Assembly (NCBI RefSeq): GCF_056712565.1
Contig: NZ_CM160072.1
DNA: 64,000 nucleotides
Reading direction: 5' to 3' (one strand)
In this document: positions 7,705 to 51,646 of the stretch, piece after piece
Layout: each line of letters starts with the position of its first letter
How positions within the stretch are numbered: position 1 is the stretch's first letter
Program-made: the position numbers and the translations under genes
Notes under the pieces: model-generated
Told to the model about the DNA's origin: nothing
The model's database searches: none
The model's input: the letters and a program-made list of their open reading frames with translations, nothing else

Positions 7705-8598
7705 ATGCGAAATTTTATCTTCCTTATGGCTTTCTTCTGTTCATCTGTGTTTGCTACACAAATTCCAGTACCTGAATCACCCAGGTATGTGAATGACTTA
7801 ACCGGCACATTAACAAACAGCGAAGTAAACACCCTGACCAACCAGATTAAAGCCCTGACGCAAAAAAACCACGCACAGTTGGTCGTGTTAGTGGTTGATA
7901 CAACAGGCGATGAAACCATTGAGCAGTACGCAACGCGGGTATTCGATAGCTGGAAACCGGGTGATAAAGACCGTGATGATGGCGTTCTACTGTTAGTCGC
8001 CTGGCAGGATCATACCGTGCGTATTGAAATCGGTTACGGGCTGGAAGGTATTATTACGGATGCACAGTCCGGGAAAATTATTCGCAACAGTATTATTCCG
8101 GCATTTAAAAAAGGCGACCTGGCTGGTGGTTTACAAAAGGGGATCAACGATATTGAAAGTCGCCTGACGGGGAATAATTCAGCAACGATAACACCGACCG
8201 ATCACCCTTTGTCCTTTAGCGGTTGGTGGGCTTTATTAGTCTGGGCGATAATACTGACGTTTATTTCTGCCAGAGGATATATCAAAACGTTGGGAGTAAT
8301 TTGCTTCGCAGCCATTGTACTGGCCTTTGTTTTACCTATAGCAGGTTTCAGCGGAAGCTGGGGAGTACTCACAACATTACTCTGCTTCGCCACACCGTTT
8401 CTGGCAGTTGCCATCGCTTTTACCCCCTTCGGCAAAAAGGTTCGGGATTCGATGCGTGATGCCAACCAGCCATCACGCCATACAAGAAGCAATTCTTCCT
8501 CCCACTATTCATCATCGTCATCCTCTTCATTCGACAATGACAATTTTAGCGGTGGTGGCGGTTCATCTGGTGGCGGTGGCGCTTCCGGGCGCTGGTAA
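7705..8598 (+). CDS. TPM-domain (YgcG-family) membrane protein, paralog 1
   Basis: Signal peptide, TPM-like core (AQLVVLVVDTTGDETIEQYATRVFDSWKPGDKDRDDGVLLLVAWQDHTVRIEIGYGLEG), C-terminal TM segments and Gly/Ser tail ending GGGGSSGGGGASGRW. Alternative start at 7675 overlaps lemA. Confidence 0.8.
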   Translation: MRNFIFLMAFFCSSVFATQIPVPESPRYVNDLTGTLTNSEVNTLTNQIKALTQKNHAQLVVLVVDTTGDETIEQYATRVFDSWKPGDKDRDDGVLLLVAWQDHTVRIEIGYGLEGIITDAQSGKIIRNSIIPAFKKGDLAGGLQKGINDIESRLTGNNSATITPTDHPLSFSGWWALLVWAIILTFISARGYIKTLGVICFAAIVLAFVLPIAGFSGSWGVLTTLLCFATPFLAVAIAFTPFGKKVRDSMRDANQPSRHTRSNSSSHYSSSSSSSFDNDNFSGGGGSSGGGGASGRW

Positions 8599-10719: not shown

Positions 10720-12033
<1,314 letters not shown>

Positions 12034-12105: not shown

Positions 12106-13758
<1,653 letters not shown>

Positions 13759-13970: not shown

Positions 13971-14762
13971 TTAGAGATCAATTTCCTGCCGTTTTACCTG
14001 TTGCCAGACTTCTTCCATTGTTTCGAGGTCAACACCTGTCATTTCCAGTCCACGCGCGGTAACAATACGCTCCACTTCGCGAAAACGACGCTCGAATTTT
14101 TCGTTCGCTTTTTGCAATGCGATTTCCGCTTTTGTCCCTAAATGACGAGCCAGATTGACCGTGGCAAACAGCAGGTCACCCATTTCCTCCTCCAGTTTAG
14201 CCTGGTCGACAACAGCCTGCCGCGCCTCGTACATCACCTCGTCGATCTCTTCGTAGACTTTATCTACTACCGGACCAAGCGTCGTCCAGTCGAAACCAAC
14301 GTTGGCGCAACGTTTCTGGATTTTTTGCGCACGCATTAAAGCCGGTAAACTACGAGGAATATCGTCCAGCGCCGAATGCTGCGCTTTCTGCGCGCGCTCT
14401 TCGGTTTTGATTTGCTCCCAACGGGCAAGCACTTCACTACTATTTTCGGCAGAACTGTCAGCAAAAACATGCGGATGGCGACGCTCTAATTTATCGCTAA
14501 TAGCAGCGCAAATATCATTAAAGTCAAAGCGCCCTTCTTCCTGAGCCATTTGTGCGTAAAACACCACCTGGAACAGCAGATCGCCCAGTTCACCGCGCAG
14601 ATCGTCAAAATCTTCACGGGCGATGGCGTCCAGCACCTCGTAGGTTTCTTCAAGGGTGTAAGGCGCAATGGTGGCAAATGTCTGCTCTTTATCCCACGGG
14701 CAGCCGTTTTCCGGGTCGCGCAGGCGCTGCATGATGGTGAGCAAACGGTCGATTTGATTCAT
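13971..14762 (-). CDS. mazG: nucleoside triphosphate pyrophosphohydrolase MazG
   Basis: 263 aa; downstream of mazF in the same orientation. Confidence 0.9.
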   Translation of the reverse strand: MNQIDRLLTIMQRLRDPENGCPWDKEQTFATIAPYTLEETYEVLDAIAREDFDDLRGELGDLLFQVVFYAQMAQEEGRFDFNDICAAISDKLERRHPHVFADSSAENSSEVLARWEQIKTEERAQKAQHSALDDIPRSLPALMRAQKIQKRCANVGFDWTTLGPVVDKVYEEIDEVMYEARQAVVDQAKLEEEMGDLLFATVNLARHLGTKAEIALQKANEKFERRFREVERIVTARGLEMTGVDLETMEEVWQQVKRQEIDL

Positions 14763-14833
14763 TGAATTGTCCTGAAAATTGCGGGTCCGTCAGGTGTAAA
14801 CCTGTGACCAGAATAGAAGTGAGTTAGTAACAC

Positions 14834-15169
14834 CTACCCAATCAGCACGTTAATTTTGGCTTTAATGAGTTGTAATTCCTCTGGGGCAACTGTTCCTTTC
14901 TTCGTTGCTCCTCTTGCCCGCCAGGCGATACTTTTTACCTGATCAGCTAACGCTACGCCATCACGTTCCTGACCGGATAGAACAACTTCGAACGGATATC
15001 CTTTTGATTGCGTTGTACAAGGAACACACAGACACATACCTGTTTTGTTGTTGTACATGAACGGACTCAGGACAACAGCCGGACGATGTCCGGCTTGCTC
15101 GCTACCTTTTGTCGGGTCAAAATCAACCCAAATCAGATCGCCCGTATCGGGTACGTATCGGCTTACCAT
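14834..15169 (-). CDS. mazF: toxin MazF (mRNA interferase)
   Basis: 111 aa, [35 protein letters not shown]...; start overlaps mazE stop. Confidence 0.93.
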   Translation of the reverse strand: MVSRYVPDTGDLIWVDFDPTKGSEQAGHRPAVVLSPFMYNNKTGMCLCVPCTTQSKGYPFEVVLSGQERDGVALADQVKSIAWRARGATKKGTVAPEELQLIKAKINVLIG

Positions 15170-15417
15170 TACCAGACTTCCTTATCTTTCGGCTCCCCCC
15201 AGTCGATATTCTCGTGGAGGTTTTCCGGCGTGATGTCGTTGACCAGTTCAGCAAGCGTAAATACGGGCTCTTTACGCACTGGCTCAATAATTAATTTGCC
15301 ATCCACCAGGTCAATCTTCACTTCATCATCAATATTCAGATTGAGCGCCTGCATTAACGTAGCCGGGATCCGCACCGCCGGTGAATTTCCCCAACGCTTT
15401 ACGCTACTGTGGATCAT
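15169..15417 (-). CDS. mazE: antitoxin MazE
   Basis: 82 aa, [27 protein letters not shown]... (AbrB/SpoVT fold). Confidence 0.93.
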
Positions 15418-15435
15418 AACCCTTTCCTCAAACCG

Positions 15436-15480
15436 CGATCATATGTAGATACAGTATATATCAATCTACATTGTAGATAC
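15436..15480 (-). promoter_or_regulatory. mazEF promoter/operator region with interleaved repeats
   Basis: gtagatacagtatatatcaatctacattgtagatac directly upstream of mazE, resembling the described alternating-palindrome autoregulation site. Confidence 0.5.
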
Positions 15481-15494
15481 GAGCAAGTTTCGGC

Positions 15495-17729
15495 CTAACT
15501 CCCGTGCAACCGACGCGCGTCGATAACATCCGGTACCTGGTTGAGTTTACCCAGCACGCGCCCCAGCACTTGCAGGTTGTAAATCTCAATGGTCATGTCG
15601 ATGGTCGCCAGTTGCTGTTTGGTGTCGCTACGGCTGGCAACGCCAAGTACGTTCACCTTCTCGTTGGCGAGAATGGTCGTGATATCACGTAACAACCCAC
15701 TACGATCATTAGCCACCACGCGGACCACCAGCGAATATCCGGCGGAGTAGCTCTCGCCCCATACCGCGTCAACAATGCGTTCTGGCGCATGGGAGCGCAG
15801 TTCCGCCAATTGTTCGCAATCGGCGCGGTGTACTGAAATACCGCGCCCCTGGGTAATGAAGCCGACAATCTCATCTCCAGGAATCGGCTGGCAGCAGCGC
15901 GCGATGTGGTGCATCAGGTTACCGACCCCTTCTACCACCACACGACCGTTATCTTTACTGCGGTTTTGCGGCGTGTAGCTTTTTTGCTGAAGCTGTTTCA
16001 GCGCGGCGGCGTCCTGCTCTTCGGCACTCGGCTTATTAAATTGCGATTGCAGGAAGTTCACCATCTGATTGAGACGGATATCCCCGCCACCAATCGCCGC
16101 CAGCAACTCGTCGACATCATTGAAGTTGTAACGCGGCAGCAGATGTTTTTCTGCTTCTTTCAGGCTGATCCCCAGATGTTCCAGCTCGTCGTCAAGAATT
16201 TGCCGCCCAGCCAGAATGTTTTTGTCACGGTCCTGTTTACGGAACCAGGCGTGAATTTTCGAACGCCCACGGCTGGTTGTGACGTAACCGAGGTTTGGGT
16301 TTAACCAGTCACGGCTGGGGTTCGGCTGTTTCTGGGTGATAATTTCAATCTGGTCGCCCATCTGCAGCTGGTAGGTGAACGGCACAATGCGCCCGCCAAT
16401 TTTTGCCCCGATGCAGCGGTGTCCGACATCACTGTGGATGTGGTAAGCGAAGTCCAGCGGCGTTGATCCCGCAGGCAAATCAACGACATCACCTTTCGGC
16501 GTAAAGACGTACACTCGGTCGTCAAAGACCTGACTACGTACTTCGTCGAGCATTTCGCCGGAATCAGCCATCTCTTCCTGCCACGCAATCAGTTTACGCA
16601 GCCAGGCAATCCGGTCTTCATGTCCCGAACGTGCGCCGCCAGCAGCCGCGCCCTCTTTATATTTCCAGTGCGCAGCAACACCCAACTCTGCATCTTCATG
16701 CATCTGTTTGGTGCGGATTTGGATCTCAACGGTTTTGCCACCCGGCCCCAGAACCACGGTATGAATGGACTGATAACCGTTTGGTTTCGGGTTAGCGACG
16801 TAATCGTCAAACTCATCCGGCAGGTGGCGATAGTGAGTGTGCACTATCCCCAGTGCGGCATAACAATCCTGTAAACGCTCGGCGACAATACGTACCGCAC
16901 GCACATCAAACAGCTCATCGAAGGCGAGGTTCTTTTTCTGCATTTTGCGCCAGATACTGTAGATGTGTTTCGGACGGCCATACACTTCAGCTTTAACGCC
17001 TTCAGCTTTCATCTCAGCGCGCAGATGGCCGACAAACTCTTCGATATAGTGTTCGCGGTCGAGACGGCGTTCATGCAGCAGTTTTGCGATGCGTTTGTAT
17101 TCGGTCGGGTGGAGATAACGGAAGCAGTAATCTTCCAGCTCCCATTTCAGTTGCCCAATCCCAAGACGGTTCGCCAACGGCGCGTAGATATTGGTGCACT
17201 CTTTTGCCGCCAGTACGCGTTCATCTTCCGGCGCATCTTTTACTTCGCGCAGGTGAGCAATACGCTCCGCCAGTTTGATGACCACGCAGCGAAAATCATC
17301 GACCATCGCCAATAACATCCGGCGAACGTTATCGACCTGTTCGGAGGAAACAGAATCAGTGTGCGTCGCTTTCAGCTGGCGGATCGCCGCCATATCACGC
17401 ACGCCGTGAATAAGGTTAACGACCGACTTACCGACGCTCTCACGCAGCACATCTTCGCTGACTACGTTGGCATCAGCCAGAGGGAACAGCAGCGCCGCCC
17501 GCAGCGTGTCAATGTCCATACTTAATGTCGAGAGGATCTCCACCATCTCAACACCACGCCACAATAACAGACTGGCATCCGGATGCCCCTGCGTCTGTTG
17601 CAGACAATACGCCCAGGTTTCGGCTAAGCACTCACACGACTTCTGGCTGGTAATACCCAGACTTGCGATCCATTTTTCCGGATCAAATTCACCAGCCTTA
17701 TTGATATGTGCACTTCTTACCGCAACCAT
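15495..17729 (-). CDS. relA: GTP pyrophosphokinase, (p)ppGpp synthetase I
   Basis: 744 aa; RelA/SpoT-family architecture; synteny upstream of mazEF. Confidence 0.95.
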   Translation of the reverse strand: MVAVRSAHINKAGEFDPEKWIASLGITSQKSCECLAETWAYCLQQTQGHPDASLLLWRGVEMVEILSTLSMDIDTLRAALLFPLADANVVSEDVLRESVGKSVVNLIHGVRDMAAIRQLKATHTDSVSSEQVDNVRRMLLAMVDDFRCVVIKLAERIAHLREVKDAPEDERVLAAKECTNIYAPLANRLGIGQLKWELEDYCFRYLHPTEYKRIAKLLHERRLDREHYIEEFVGHLRAEMKAEGVKAEVYGRPKHIYSIWRKMQKKNLAFDELFDVRAVRIVAERLQDCYAALGIVHTHYRHLPDEFDDYVANPKPNGYQSIHTVVLGPGGKTVEIQIRTKQMHEDAELGVAAHWKYKEGAAAGGARSGHEDRIAWLRKLIAWQEEMADSGEMLDEVRSQVFDDRVYVFTPKGDVVDLPAGSTPLDFAYHIHSDVGHRCIGAKIGGRIVPFTYQLQMGDQIEIITQKQPNPSRDWLNPNLGYVTTSRGRSKIHAWFRKQDRDKNILAGRQILDDELEHLGISLKEAEKHLLPRYNFNDVDELLAAIGGGDIRLNQMVNFLQSQFNKPSAEEQDAAALKQLQQKSYTPQNRSKDNGRVVVEGVGNLMHHIARCCQPIPGDEIVGFITQGRGISVHRADCEQLAELRSHAPERIVDAVWGESYSAGYSLVVRVVANDRSGLLRDITTILANEKVNVLGVASRSDTKQQLATIDMTIEIYNLQVLGRVLGKLNQVPDVIDARRLHGS

Positions 17730-17776: not shown

Positions 17777-19078
17777 CTATTTAACGCGCGAGAAAAGTAC
17801 CATCGATTCCAGATGTCCCGTGTGTGGGAACATATCCAGCATCGCCAGTCGCGCAATGGTATATCCTGCTTTTAATAACGCTTCGCTATCCCGAGCCAGC
17901 GTTGCAGGGTTACAGGATACATAAACTATACGAATAGGTTCCAGTTTTATAATTTGCTGCATAACACCTGCGGCACCTGCTCGCGCCGGGTCCAGCAACA
18001 CTTTATCGAAGCCGTTTTTCGCCCACGGCTGCTTTGTGACATCTTCTTCAAGATTTTCGTGATAAAACGTCACATTCTGTAAGCCATTAAGACGCGCATT
18101 CTGCTGGCCTTTTTCCACCAGCGCCGGAACACCTTCTACACCCACCACACTGGCAGCTTGTGTCGCCAATGGCAGTGTAAAGTTGCCCATACCGCAGAAC
18201 AGATCCAGTACGCAATCTTCAGGTTCCACATCCAGCCATTCCAACGCACGCGCTACCATTTTCTGGTTCACACCCGCATTGACCTGAATAAAATCGCGCG
18301 GGCTAAAAGTTAAGCGCAACCCATTTGAGTCATACCAGGGCATCTCACCAGAGACGGTTTCGAGTATCTCACTATCGGGGGCGAGATACAGATCCAGGCC
18401 TTCAGAATGCGAAAAGCATTCCAGTTTTTCGCGATCTGCCGAACTTAGCGGTGCGGTATGGCGCAAAATCATTAGCGTGCCGCTGGTTGCCTGTACCAGT
18501 TCAACATGACCAAGATGGCGCATAGCTTGTAAGCTGCCCAGGCATGCCCTGACTTTGGGCAGCAATGCTTCAAGTTGGGGCACTAAAATGGGGCATTGTT
18601 TAACGTCGACAATGTCACTGGAGCCCGCTTTGCGAAACCCCATCTGAAGTTGCTGTGTTTTCGGTAAGTAGTTCAGACTTAAACGCGCGCGACGGCGATA
18701 GCCCCAGGGAACATCGGCGATCACTTCAGAGACTTCGTGTTTCATTAATCGGGCGAGTGCCGCACTTTTGCTTCGCTGCTGTAAATCCACACTGGCGTGT
18801 TGTTGCTGACAGCCGCCGCATACGCCAAAATGAGGACAGCGTGGCGTTTCGCGTTCCGGGCTATCGCTTAATCGGCGTACGACTTTAGCGCGGGCATACT
18901 GTTTTTTATCTTCAGTAACAGTAACTTCCGCGTTTTCCTGCGGCAATAATCCGGGGATAAATAATGTTTTGCCGTTATGTCGCGCCACACCCTGACCAAA
19001 AGAGTCGAGGTCGTTGACTGAAACGGTTATGATCTGACGCGTCGTCGTGCGTCGTTTTGCAGAGTAGAATTGCGCCAT
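17777..19078 (-). CDS. rlmD: 23S rRNA (uracil1939-C5)-methyltransferase
   Basis: 433 aa; TRAM domain and Cys cluster; synteny. Confidence 0.9.
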
Positions 19079-28189: not shown

Positions 28190-28232
28190 AAAGCAACCTC
28201 AATAAGAAAAACTGCCGCGAAGAATAGCAGGA

Positions 28233-28600
28233 ATAAAAAAAGGGAGCACTGTATTCACAGTGCTCCCGGTTCGTTTCGCAGCATTCCGGCTACTTTTGTT
28301 GCTCCCTGCTCATCCTTGACAACTTTTCCTCTGGCCTTGCGGCCAATCGTTCATCCTGAACTATTGCTTCCTGCTCACACCACCCCGATGTGATACTTCA
28401 TCCTGAAGTGTTCCTGGCCTTCCTGACCCACCGAATCATCCTGACCGGTTCTCATTCTCCATCCTGGAGGTGTCCTTTAACGCGTCCTGCGTCATCCTCT
28501 TCGCTTCATCCAGAAGCCTTTCCCTGAAACACCATCCTGGTGTGTCCTTCAGAAGTGTCATCATCCTGATGTTCACTTCGTTGTCTGACTCCCTGTCGAC
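28233..28600 (-). ncRNA. csrB: CsrB small RNA (CsrA-sequestering)
   Basis: More than a dozen catcct(g) motifs on the + strand (CAGGAUG/AGGA on the transcript). 5' end reads GUCGACAGGGAGUCAGACAACGAAGUGAACAUCAGGAUGA on the minus strand. Terminator hairpin gggagcactg...cagtgctccc plus U-run at 28233-28266. Confidence 0.9.
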
Positions 28601-51349: not shown

Positions 51350-51426
<77 letters not shown>

Positions 51427-51459
51427 ATTAAAATTTGATGAAGTAAAGCAGTACGGTGA

Positions 51460-51536
<77 letters not shown>

Positions 51537-51569
51537 ATCAAAATTTGATGAAATAAAGCAGTACGGTGA

Positions 51570-51646
<77 letters not shown>

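Follow-up and report, generated by a model that had tools for sequence, protein, structure and literature searches.

Between relA and mazG, the 64,000-nt stretch of DNA analysed here (the window) carries what is, to judge from its sequence, almost certainly the chromosomal type II toxin-antitoxin (TA) operon mazEF of Escherichia coli, intact, very probably functional and present as a UTI89-like allele. The gene pair and its operator at this place are already known and ordinary: the original prediction had called it a classic, well-known TA pair, and we find it undamaged and placed between relA and mazG just as in K-12.

All genes of the interval lie on the minus strand. In the direction of transcription, rlmD (17777-19078, from the ORF list) is followed by relA (15495-17729), which encodes a full-length RelA by Pfam and lies directly upstream of mazE; by an intergenic region of 77 nt (15418-15494); by the antitoxin gene mazE (15169-15417, 82 aa) and the toxin gene mazF (14834-15169, 111 aa; the T9 allele, RefSeq WP_000254750.1); by a spacer of 71 nt (14763-14833), one base longer than in K-12; and by mazG (13971-14762; Pfam MazG), directly downstream of mazF. 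Next come pyrG (12106-13743) and eno (10720-12018), both from the ORF list. The coordinates predicted for the two ORFs of the pair are thus borne out, as is the relA-mazEFG arrangement in which they had been placed. The small antitoxin gene stands directly 5' of the toxin gene on the same strand, with overlapping codons, which is the layout of a type II TA system; the overlap of start and stop, also predicted, amounts to a single base, 15169, common to the mazE stop and the mazF start (TAATG; mRNA ...TGGTAATGGTA... / ...GTCTGGTAATGGTAAGC...). The ribosome-binding site of mazE, GAGGA, is found within the relA-mazE spacer.

Domain models, equivalog models, a structural match and the RefSeq annotation all agree on the predicted identity of the pair. 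MazF scores 85 bits (5e-24, cut-off 23.1) against Pfam PF02452 PemK_toxin and, over its full length (residues 1-111), 226.4 bits against the NCBIfam equivalog NF007386 'endoribonuclease MazF', for which the cut-off is 120. MazE reaches 52.9 bits (3.5e-14, cut-off 24.7, residues 6-51) against Pfam PF04014 MazE_antitoxin (AbrB/MazE/SpoVT) and 196.2 bits (cut-off 113, residues 1-82) against the equivalog NF007312; it consists of an N-terminal AbrB-type DNA-binding domain and a C-terminal MazF-binding tail. The crystallised E. coli MazF (PDB 3NFC; also 5CK9 and 1UB4) shares 110 of 111 residues with the protein of the window. The protein has E24, R29 and T52, none of which varies when it is aligned with plasmid homologues; R29 and T52 are, as we assume, the catalytic residues of MazF. 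An E24A mutant of MazF is inactive (PMC5888573). With 99% identity to the characterised protein, the MazF encoded here would be expected to cleave single-stranded RNA specifically at ACA and to arrest growth when left unneutralised.

Two related systems, ChpS/ChpB (chpBIK) and Kis/Kid (PemI/PemK), share with this pair a toxin of the PemK/MazF-fold superfamily and an AbrB-type antitoxin. However, the ChpB and ChpS models give 55 and 35 bits on the window pair, far under their cut-offs of 129 and 101, and Kid matches the window MazF with an E-value of only 7.8e-9, which makes the pair MazEF proper and not ChpB or Kid. None of the anti-phage defence models of PADLOC-DB 2.0.0 matches MazE or MazF, so that this library lends a defence role no support.

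Across positions 14700-15600 the DNA is 100% identical to that of UTI89, S88, APEC O1, IHE3034 and the type strain ATCC 11775, and the labels that RefSeq attaches to DNA identical to the window are mazG, mazF, mazE and relA. The annotation coordinates of UTI89 agree with the ORFs of the window over its first 50 kb. Elsewhere in the window, an Rfam scan places the CsrB sRNA at 28232-28591 on the minus strand (382 bits) and the GcvB sRNA at 46821-47026 on the plus strand (199 bits). Three tandem tRNA-Met(CAT) genes occupy 51350-51646 on the plus strand; we take them to be, probably, the metZWV initiator tRNA cluster of K-12. Within a LemA/TPM-domain cluster in the queE to eno interval lies a TPM-domain gene (7705-8376, plus strand), annotated in UTI89 as an incomplete pseudogene with its C-terminus missing.

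The original prediction had proposed an alignment to K-12 mazEF, with frameshifts or divergence as the signs of a non-functional pair. From mazG to relA, that alignment contains 80 differences in 3759 aligned positions and zero frameshifts. K-12 mazEF (chpA; b2783/b2782), with its P2/P3 promoter and alternating palindrome, corresponds to the window pair in locus, gene order and 1-nt overlap; MazE is 100% and MazF 99% identical, and the operator sites c, a and b are the same. The same holds for the positions of the ACA sites, nine in mazF and two in mazE, counts that match those reported (PMC5888573). At the protein level MazE and RelA do not differ from K-12, MazG carries A235T, and M9T is the sole change in MazF. 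It is one of six SNPs in mazF, the other five being synonymous, next to one synonymous SNP in mazE. Outside the genes, the mazF-mazG spacer is longer by a C, at 14833, and the relA-mazE spacer has two SNPs, at 15437 and 15487. Both fall outside the operator sites c, a and b; the one at 15437 is promoter-proximal and adjoins the operator.

A decayed or non-functional remnant in the window strain might be suspected from the non-synonymous M9T, from the SNPs close to the promoter, and from the fact that loss of the locus is tolerated, with 1007 genomes lacking mazEF and E. albertii retaining scars only. Position 9, however, is occupied by Ser in three MazFs from plasmids (71-73% identity). Since these proteins carry Ser there while E24, R29 and T52 are invariant, M9T falls at a position that varies (M, T or S) among functional-looking homologues in which the catalytic residues are retained. 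The 91-nt segment with the T9 codon recurs identically in 490 of the 4418 genomes carrying mazF, and the T9 protein WP_000254750.1 is also encoded by strain LR-60 on a different flank haplotype; T9 is therefore best seen as a standing allele, not a private lesion. With both ORFs at full length, free of frameshifts and premature stops, an antitoxin unchanged from K-12, and operator and ACA sites unaltered, we consider decay very improbable and retain the reading of an intact pair.

Sequence variation is not evenly spread over the locus. Among seven E. coli alleles compared over 14700-15600, variable sites number about 2.4-2.7 per 100 nt in mazE and mazF and 6-9 per 100 nt in the adjoining ends of relA and mazG and in the spacers; between the window and K-12, mazEF diverges by 1.2% and relA plus mazG by 2.2%. 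These counts are small, and they hint that the mazEF cassette may be younger or more constrained than its flanks.

The spacer between relA and mazE had been described as a repeat-rich promoter with an interleaved-repeat operator, and this description stands: it contains the published alternating palindrome. A 9-nt direct repeat, TGTAGATAC, occurs at 15444-15452 and again at 15472-15480, and a central arm at 15464-15471 can pair either with 15443-15450 (8 nt, 13-nt gap) or with 15472-15478 (7 nt, 1-nt gap). In the published account, the middle part 'a' of the palindrome can pair with 'b' or 'c' (PMC4803016). MazE binding to operator fragments was established by ITC, EMSA and NMR, with 'cab' occupied by three MazE dimers and the affinity raised by MazF (PMC4333400). 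The MazE-binding oligonucleotides of that study occur in the window with zero mismatches, all on the minus strand: site c at 15462-15480, site a, with ATATAT, at 15451-15464, and site b at 15441-15459. Mapped in this way, the mazEF operator 'cab' extends over 15438-15483. The end coordinate of the original prediction, 15480, coincides with the outer edge of site c, and the spacer itself extends to 15494.

The repeats are short (7-9 nt) and lie in an AT-rich region, and in the original study many mutations of the palindrome left MazEF binding intact (PMC4803016), so that one could regard them as a chance feature of AT-rich intergenic DNA with no operator. Against this, when the 77-nt spacer was shuffled 5000 times, 43 shuffles gave a direct repeat of 9 nt or longer and 163 an inverted repeat of 8 nt or longer, but only 2 gave both. 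Chance would also leave unexplained the exact identity to DNA fragments that bind MazE by three methods, and the distribution of variation among the seven E. coli alleles: there are 0 variable sites in 15438-15482 and 7 in the remaining 32 nt of the spacer, an invariance with a hypergeometric chance of about 0.0014. Moreover, a plasmid homologue has the same half-site, GTATCTACAA. A chance origin is in our view practically out of the question; the data support the repeats as a functional operator and, at the level of the letters, an autoregulated pair.

Transcription of K-12 mazEF starts from two promoters, P2 and P3, 13 nt apart, which MazE represses and MazE-MazF represses still more, and a Fis site further upstream acts in transcription activation (PMC4803016). 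A generic sigma-70 scan of 14700-15600 recovered no consensus promoter within the relA-mazE spacer; its lone promoter-like match lies inside mazE and is about as frequent in shuffles. As the scan missed the promoter, P2 and P3 are taken here from the literature.

A molecular mechanism can, with high confidence, be carried over to the window from the near-identical K-12 pair (PMC4333400, PMC4803016, PMC5888573; for the antisense RNA aMEF, PMC8749433). Under this scheme the promoters in the 77-nt relA-mazE spacer would drive mazE and mazF as one transcript, and translation of the two would be coupled via the TAATG overlap. MazE dimers would bind, through their AbrB-type N-terminal domains, to the three overlapping sites c, a and b; because MazF increases this binding, the complex would repress its own promoter. 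The C-terminal tail of MazE is expected to block the MazF dimer, giving a MazF2-MazE2-MazF2 complex. The antitoxin is unstable, being a substrate of ClpAP and Lon (PMC5888573; PMC8749433), and the mazEF transcript is itself cleaved by MazF (PMC5888573). Finally, mazEF expression would be raised by aMEF, whose plus-strand transcription begins within mazF. At the distal end, a terminator in the mazF-mazG spacer was considered and rejected: the hairpin predicted there folds about as well as shuffled sequence does (z = -0.31), and a terminator scan of 14700-15600 found no terminator-like site on the minus strand between mazF and mazG. This is consistent with the read-through from mazF into mazG that has been described (PMC4803016).

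The plus-strand aMEF was absent from the original prediction and is already published. In the K-12 annotation it appears as the ncRNA ameF (b4844), at 2911051-2911450 on the plus strand, which by homology transfer gives an expected position of about 15129-15528 on the plus strand of the window; an Rfam scan of the whole window reports no RNA family in the mazEF region, aMEF included. It stimulates mazEF expression, RNase III not being needed, from a promoter that is weak, non-canonical and poorly conserved (PMC8749433). Compared with K-12, the window differs in the 75-bp promoter fragment at positions -67, -49 and -37.

Two of these positions, -49 and -37, are the synonymous mazF SNPs 15080 (C/T) and 15092 (G/A), and they are pairing partners in an 8-bp hairpin, AGCCGGAC-GAT-GTCCGGCT, at 15077-15095 inside mazF codons 26-31 (the R29 region). 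Relative to K-12 a T-A pair has become C-G, so that the stem is preserved, and the seven E. coli alleles contain only the two paired states. As RNA the hairpin folds with -17.1 kcal/mol (z = -2.6 versus shuffles). Lying 12 nt apart and fully linked with SNP 15062, the two changes are best counted as a single event, and haplotype counts across all genomes would not tell selection from linkage.

The locus is polymorphic in its presence. Of 5426 complete E. coli genomes, 4415 have it as in the window, and in 1007 (about 19%) just 95 nt separate relA from mazG. Alignment with this empty allele delimits the mazEF cassette (minus strand) as an insertion/deletion polymorphism of about 690 bp: positions ~14806-15494 of the window are swapped for some 59 bp of unrelated, hairpin-forming sequence. 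On the relA side the break falls within the relA stop codon, which is TAG where the cassette is present and TAA where it is absent; on the mazG side it is blurred over about 14800 to 14813. The spacer of the empty allele forms a strong 12-bp hairpin (spacer -33.3 kcal/mol, z = -5.5); as its reference we used the 95-nt spacer of E. coli 1410D004 (L002, 1564-1658; also L036, L012, L065 and L067). Around 1000 low-coverage matches were considered as divergent mazEF alleles, and this was rejected, as they are clean replacements by the empty spacer.

SE15 has the empty allele, and UTI89, S88 and ATCC 11775 have the cassette. We take S88, ATCC 11775 and SE15 to belong to phylogroup B2; on these assignments, presence and absence would segregate within one phylogroup. 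UTI89 is a B2 strain (PMC7167474). The same review lists it as a strain without mazEF (PMC7167474), which is contradicted by its RefSeq record: in NC_007946.1, positions 3065213-3065796 are annotated as mazE and mazF and are 100% identical to 14834-15417 of the window.

Beyond E. coli, we scanned one genome per species with a degenerate pattern for the RelA C-terminus, which located 107 Enterobacteriaceae loci; this set of outgroups is broad and incomplete, with a mazEF-carrying E. coli representative, E. fergusonii, E. marmotae, S. enterica subsp. enterica and S. bongori standing outside it. In 0 of the 107 species loci is there a MazE or MazF homologue between relA and mazG. Where both gene ends are visible (97 loci), the relA-mazG distance has a median of 84 nt and is at most 150 nt in 92. 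The empty allele's hairpin spacer also occurs in E. whittamii, in Escherichia sp. MOD1-EC7003 and in two more records titled E. coli; this sharing with other Escherichia species marks it as the older state.

The type strain of E. albertii, NBRC 107761, has a relA-mazG spacer of 265 nt (L006, 10003-10266). At its start, the relA TAG leads into operator sequence that can still be recognised, the promoter-distal part as far as site c; a REP-like middle comes next, and the end is formed by the 3' tail found after mazF; the spacer holds no mazE or mazF coding remnant. From this composition we infer that it is the scar of a lost mazEF cassette. As a separate observation, Superficieibacter electus (L007, 5215-5553) and Klebsiella oxytoca (L031, 972-1304) have in their relA-mazG spacer, in place of mazEF, a conserved hydrophobic ORF of about 110 aa, MDLSLSFFILYLLSSL..., which matches no Pfam family; its occurrence in two species suggests that the spacer accepts other small insertions.

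Close homologues of the pair occur on plasmids. In Pantoea, Rahnella, Brenneria, Citrobacter and Providencia, plasmids that are conjugative or mobilizable encode MazF proteins of 71-73% identity, and the genes there are flanked by tra genes or have par and hok as neighbours. Citrobacter freundii pF1917-3, Rahnella aceris pPlas1 and Providencia rettgeri p06-1619-1 show the two-gene architecture of the window, whereas their MazE is only 40-46% identical next to a MazF of 71-73%, and their location is a plasmid and not relA-mazG. In Rahnella and Providencia the antitoxin stop and the toxin start share one base, as in the window; in the record of pF1917-3 the annotated mazE ends one base before the mazF start. 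Like the chromosomal pair, the plasmid homologues have inverted-repeat operators upstream. The Citrobacter plasmid (MazF 71%, MazE 40%) has interleaved inverted repeats built on the E. coli half-site TTGTAGATAC/GTATCTACAA, namely a 15-nt perfect inverted repeat TTGTAGATACATTGT/ACAATGTATCTACAA with a nested second right arm (L111, 393-431), and the Rahnella homologue has related GTATCANCA palindromes.

Since 1007 of 5426 genomes are empty, 0 of 107 species loci hold the pair, E. albertii has scars and homologues reside on plasmids, mazEF fits the behaviour of an Escherichia-restricted, inserted and dispensable cassette, as reviews already argue; one of them treats it as an insertion into a relA-mazG bicistron (PMC7167474). 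A different account would make mazEF an integral, co-evolved part of a stringent-response operon, relA-mazEFG, in which (p)ppGpp synthesis by RelA and its control through hydrolysis by MazG tune MazF-mediated death or dormancy. The genes are indeed adjacent and, by published accounts, co-transcribed (PMC7167474; PMC4803016), and the minus strand has no terminator-like site between mazF and mazG. Yet mazEF is missing between adjacent relA and mazG in each of the 97 non-E. coli-type species loci whose gene ends are both visible, and in the 1007 empty E. coli genomes; the cassette brings its own promoter and operator, with a boundary inside the relA stop codon; its close relatives live amid tra or beside par/hok genes; and a review sees no established functional tie to the neighbouring cistrons (PMC7167474). 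We therefore regard an integral operon as unlikely and favour the inserted cassette.

How the cassette came to be so distributed can be proposed only tentatively. It may have entered the space between relA and mazG in an Escherichia ancestor and since then have disappeared repeatedly, with homologous recombination removing it or swapping the ancestral hairpin spacer in for it, a course of events that we hold to be possible and somewhat doubtful. Close relatives would then differ only by presence or absence of the cassette, and if so, such natural allele pairs, together with structure-preserving synonymous changes of the hairpin, could test selection on chromosomal mazEF.

As to its role, programmed death, stress-induced growth arrest, specialised ribosomes and persisters have all been claimed and then questioned (PMC7167474). 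More recently (2025), native mazEF was reported to give modest protection against RNA phages, so that it may act in defence (PMC12151602). Addiction or selfish maintenance, modest phage defence and stress-induced growth arrest are the candidate roles; selfish maintenance with an occasional benefit in phage defence is the most economical reading of the persistence of the cassette. The original prediction held the pair to be relevant wherever this region is interpreted in terms of stress or persistence; this overstates current opinion, in which these roles are disputed (PMC7167474).

For annotation, the value of the result is that the window strain carries an intact mazEF. Because the cassette is often absent and its roles are disputed, the stress genes relA and mazG should be read through mazEF with caution. 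The boundaries of the empty allele, the scars in E. albertii and an invariant operator within a variable spacer, small observations in themselves, provide concrete material for testing, through population genetics or allele swaps, why chromosomal TA cassettes persist.
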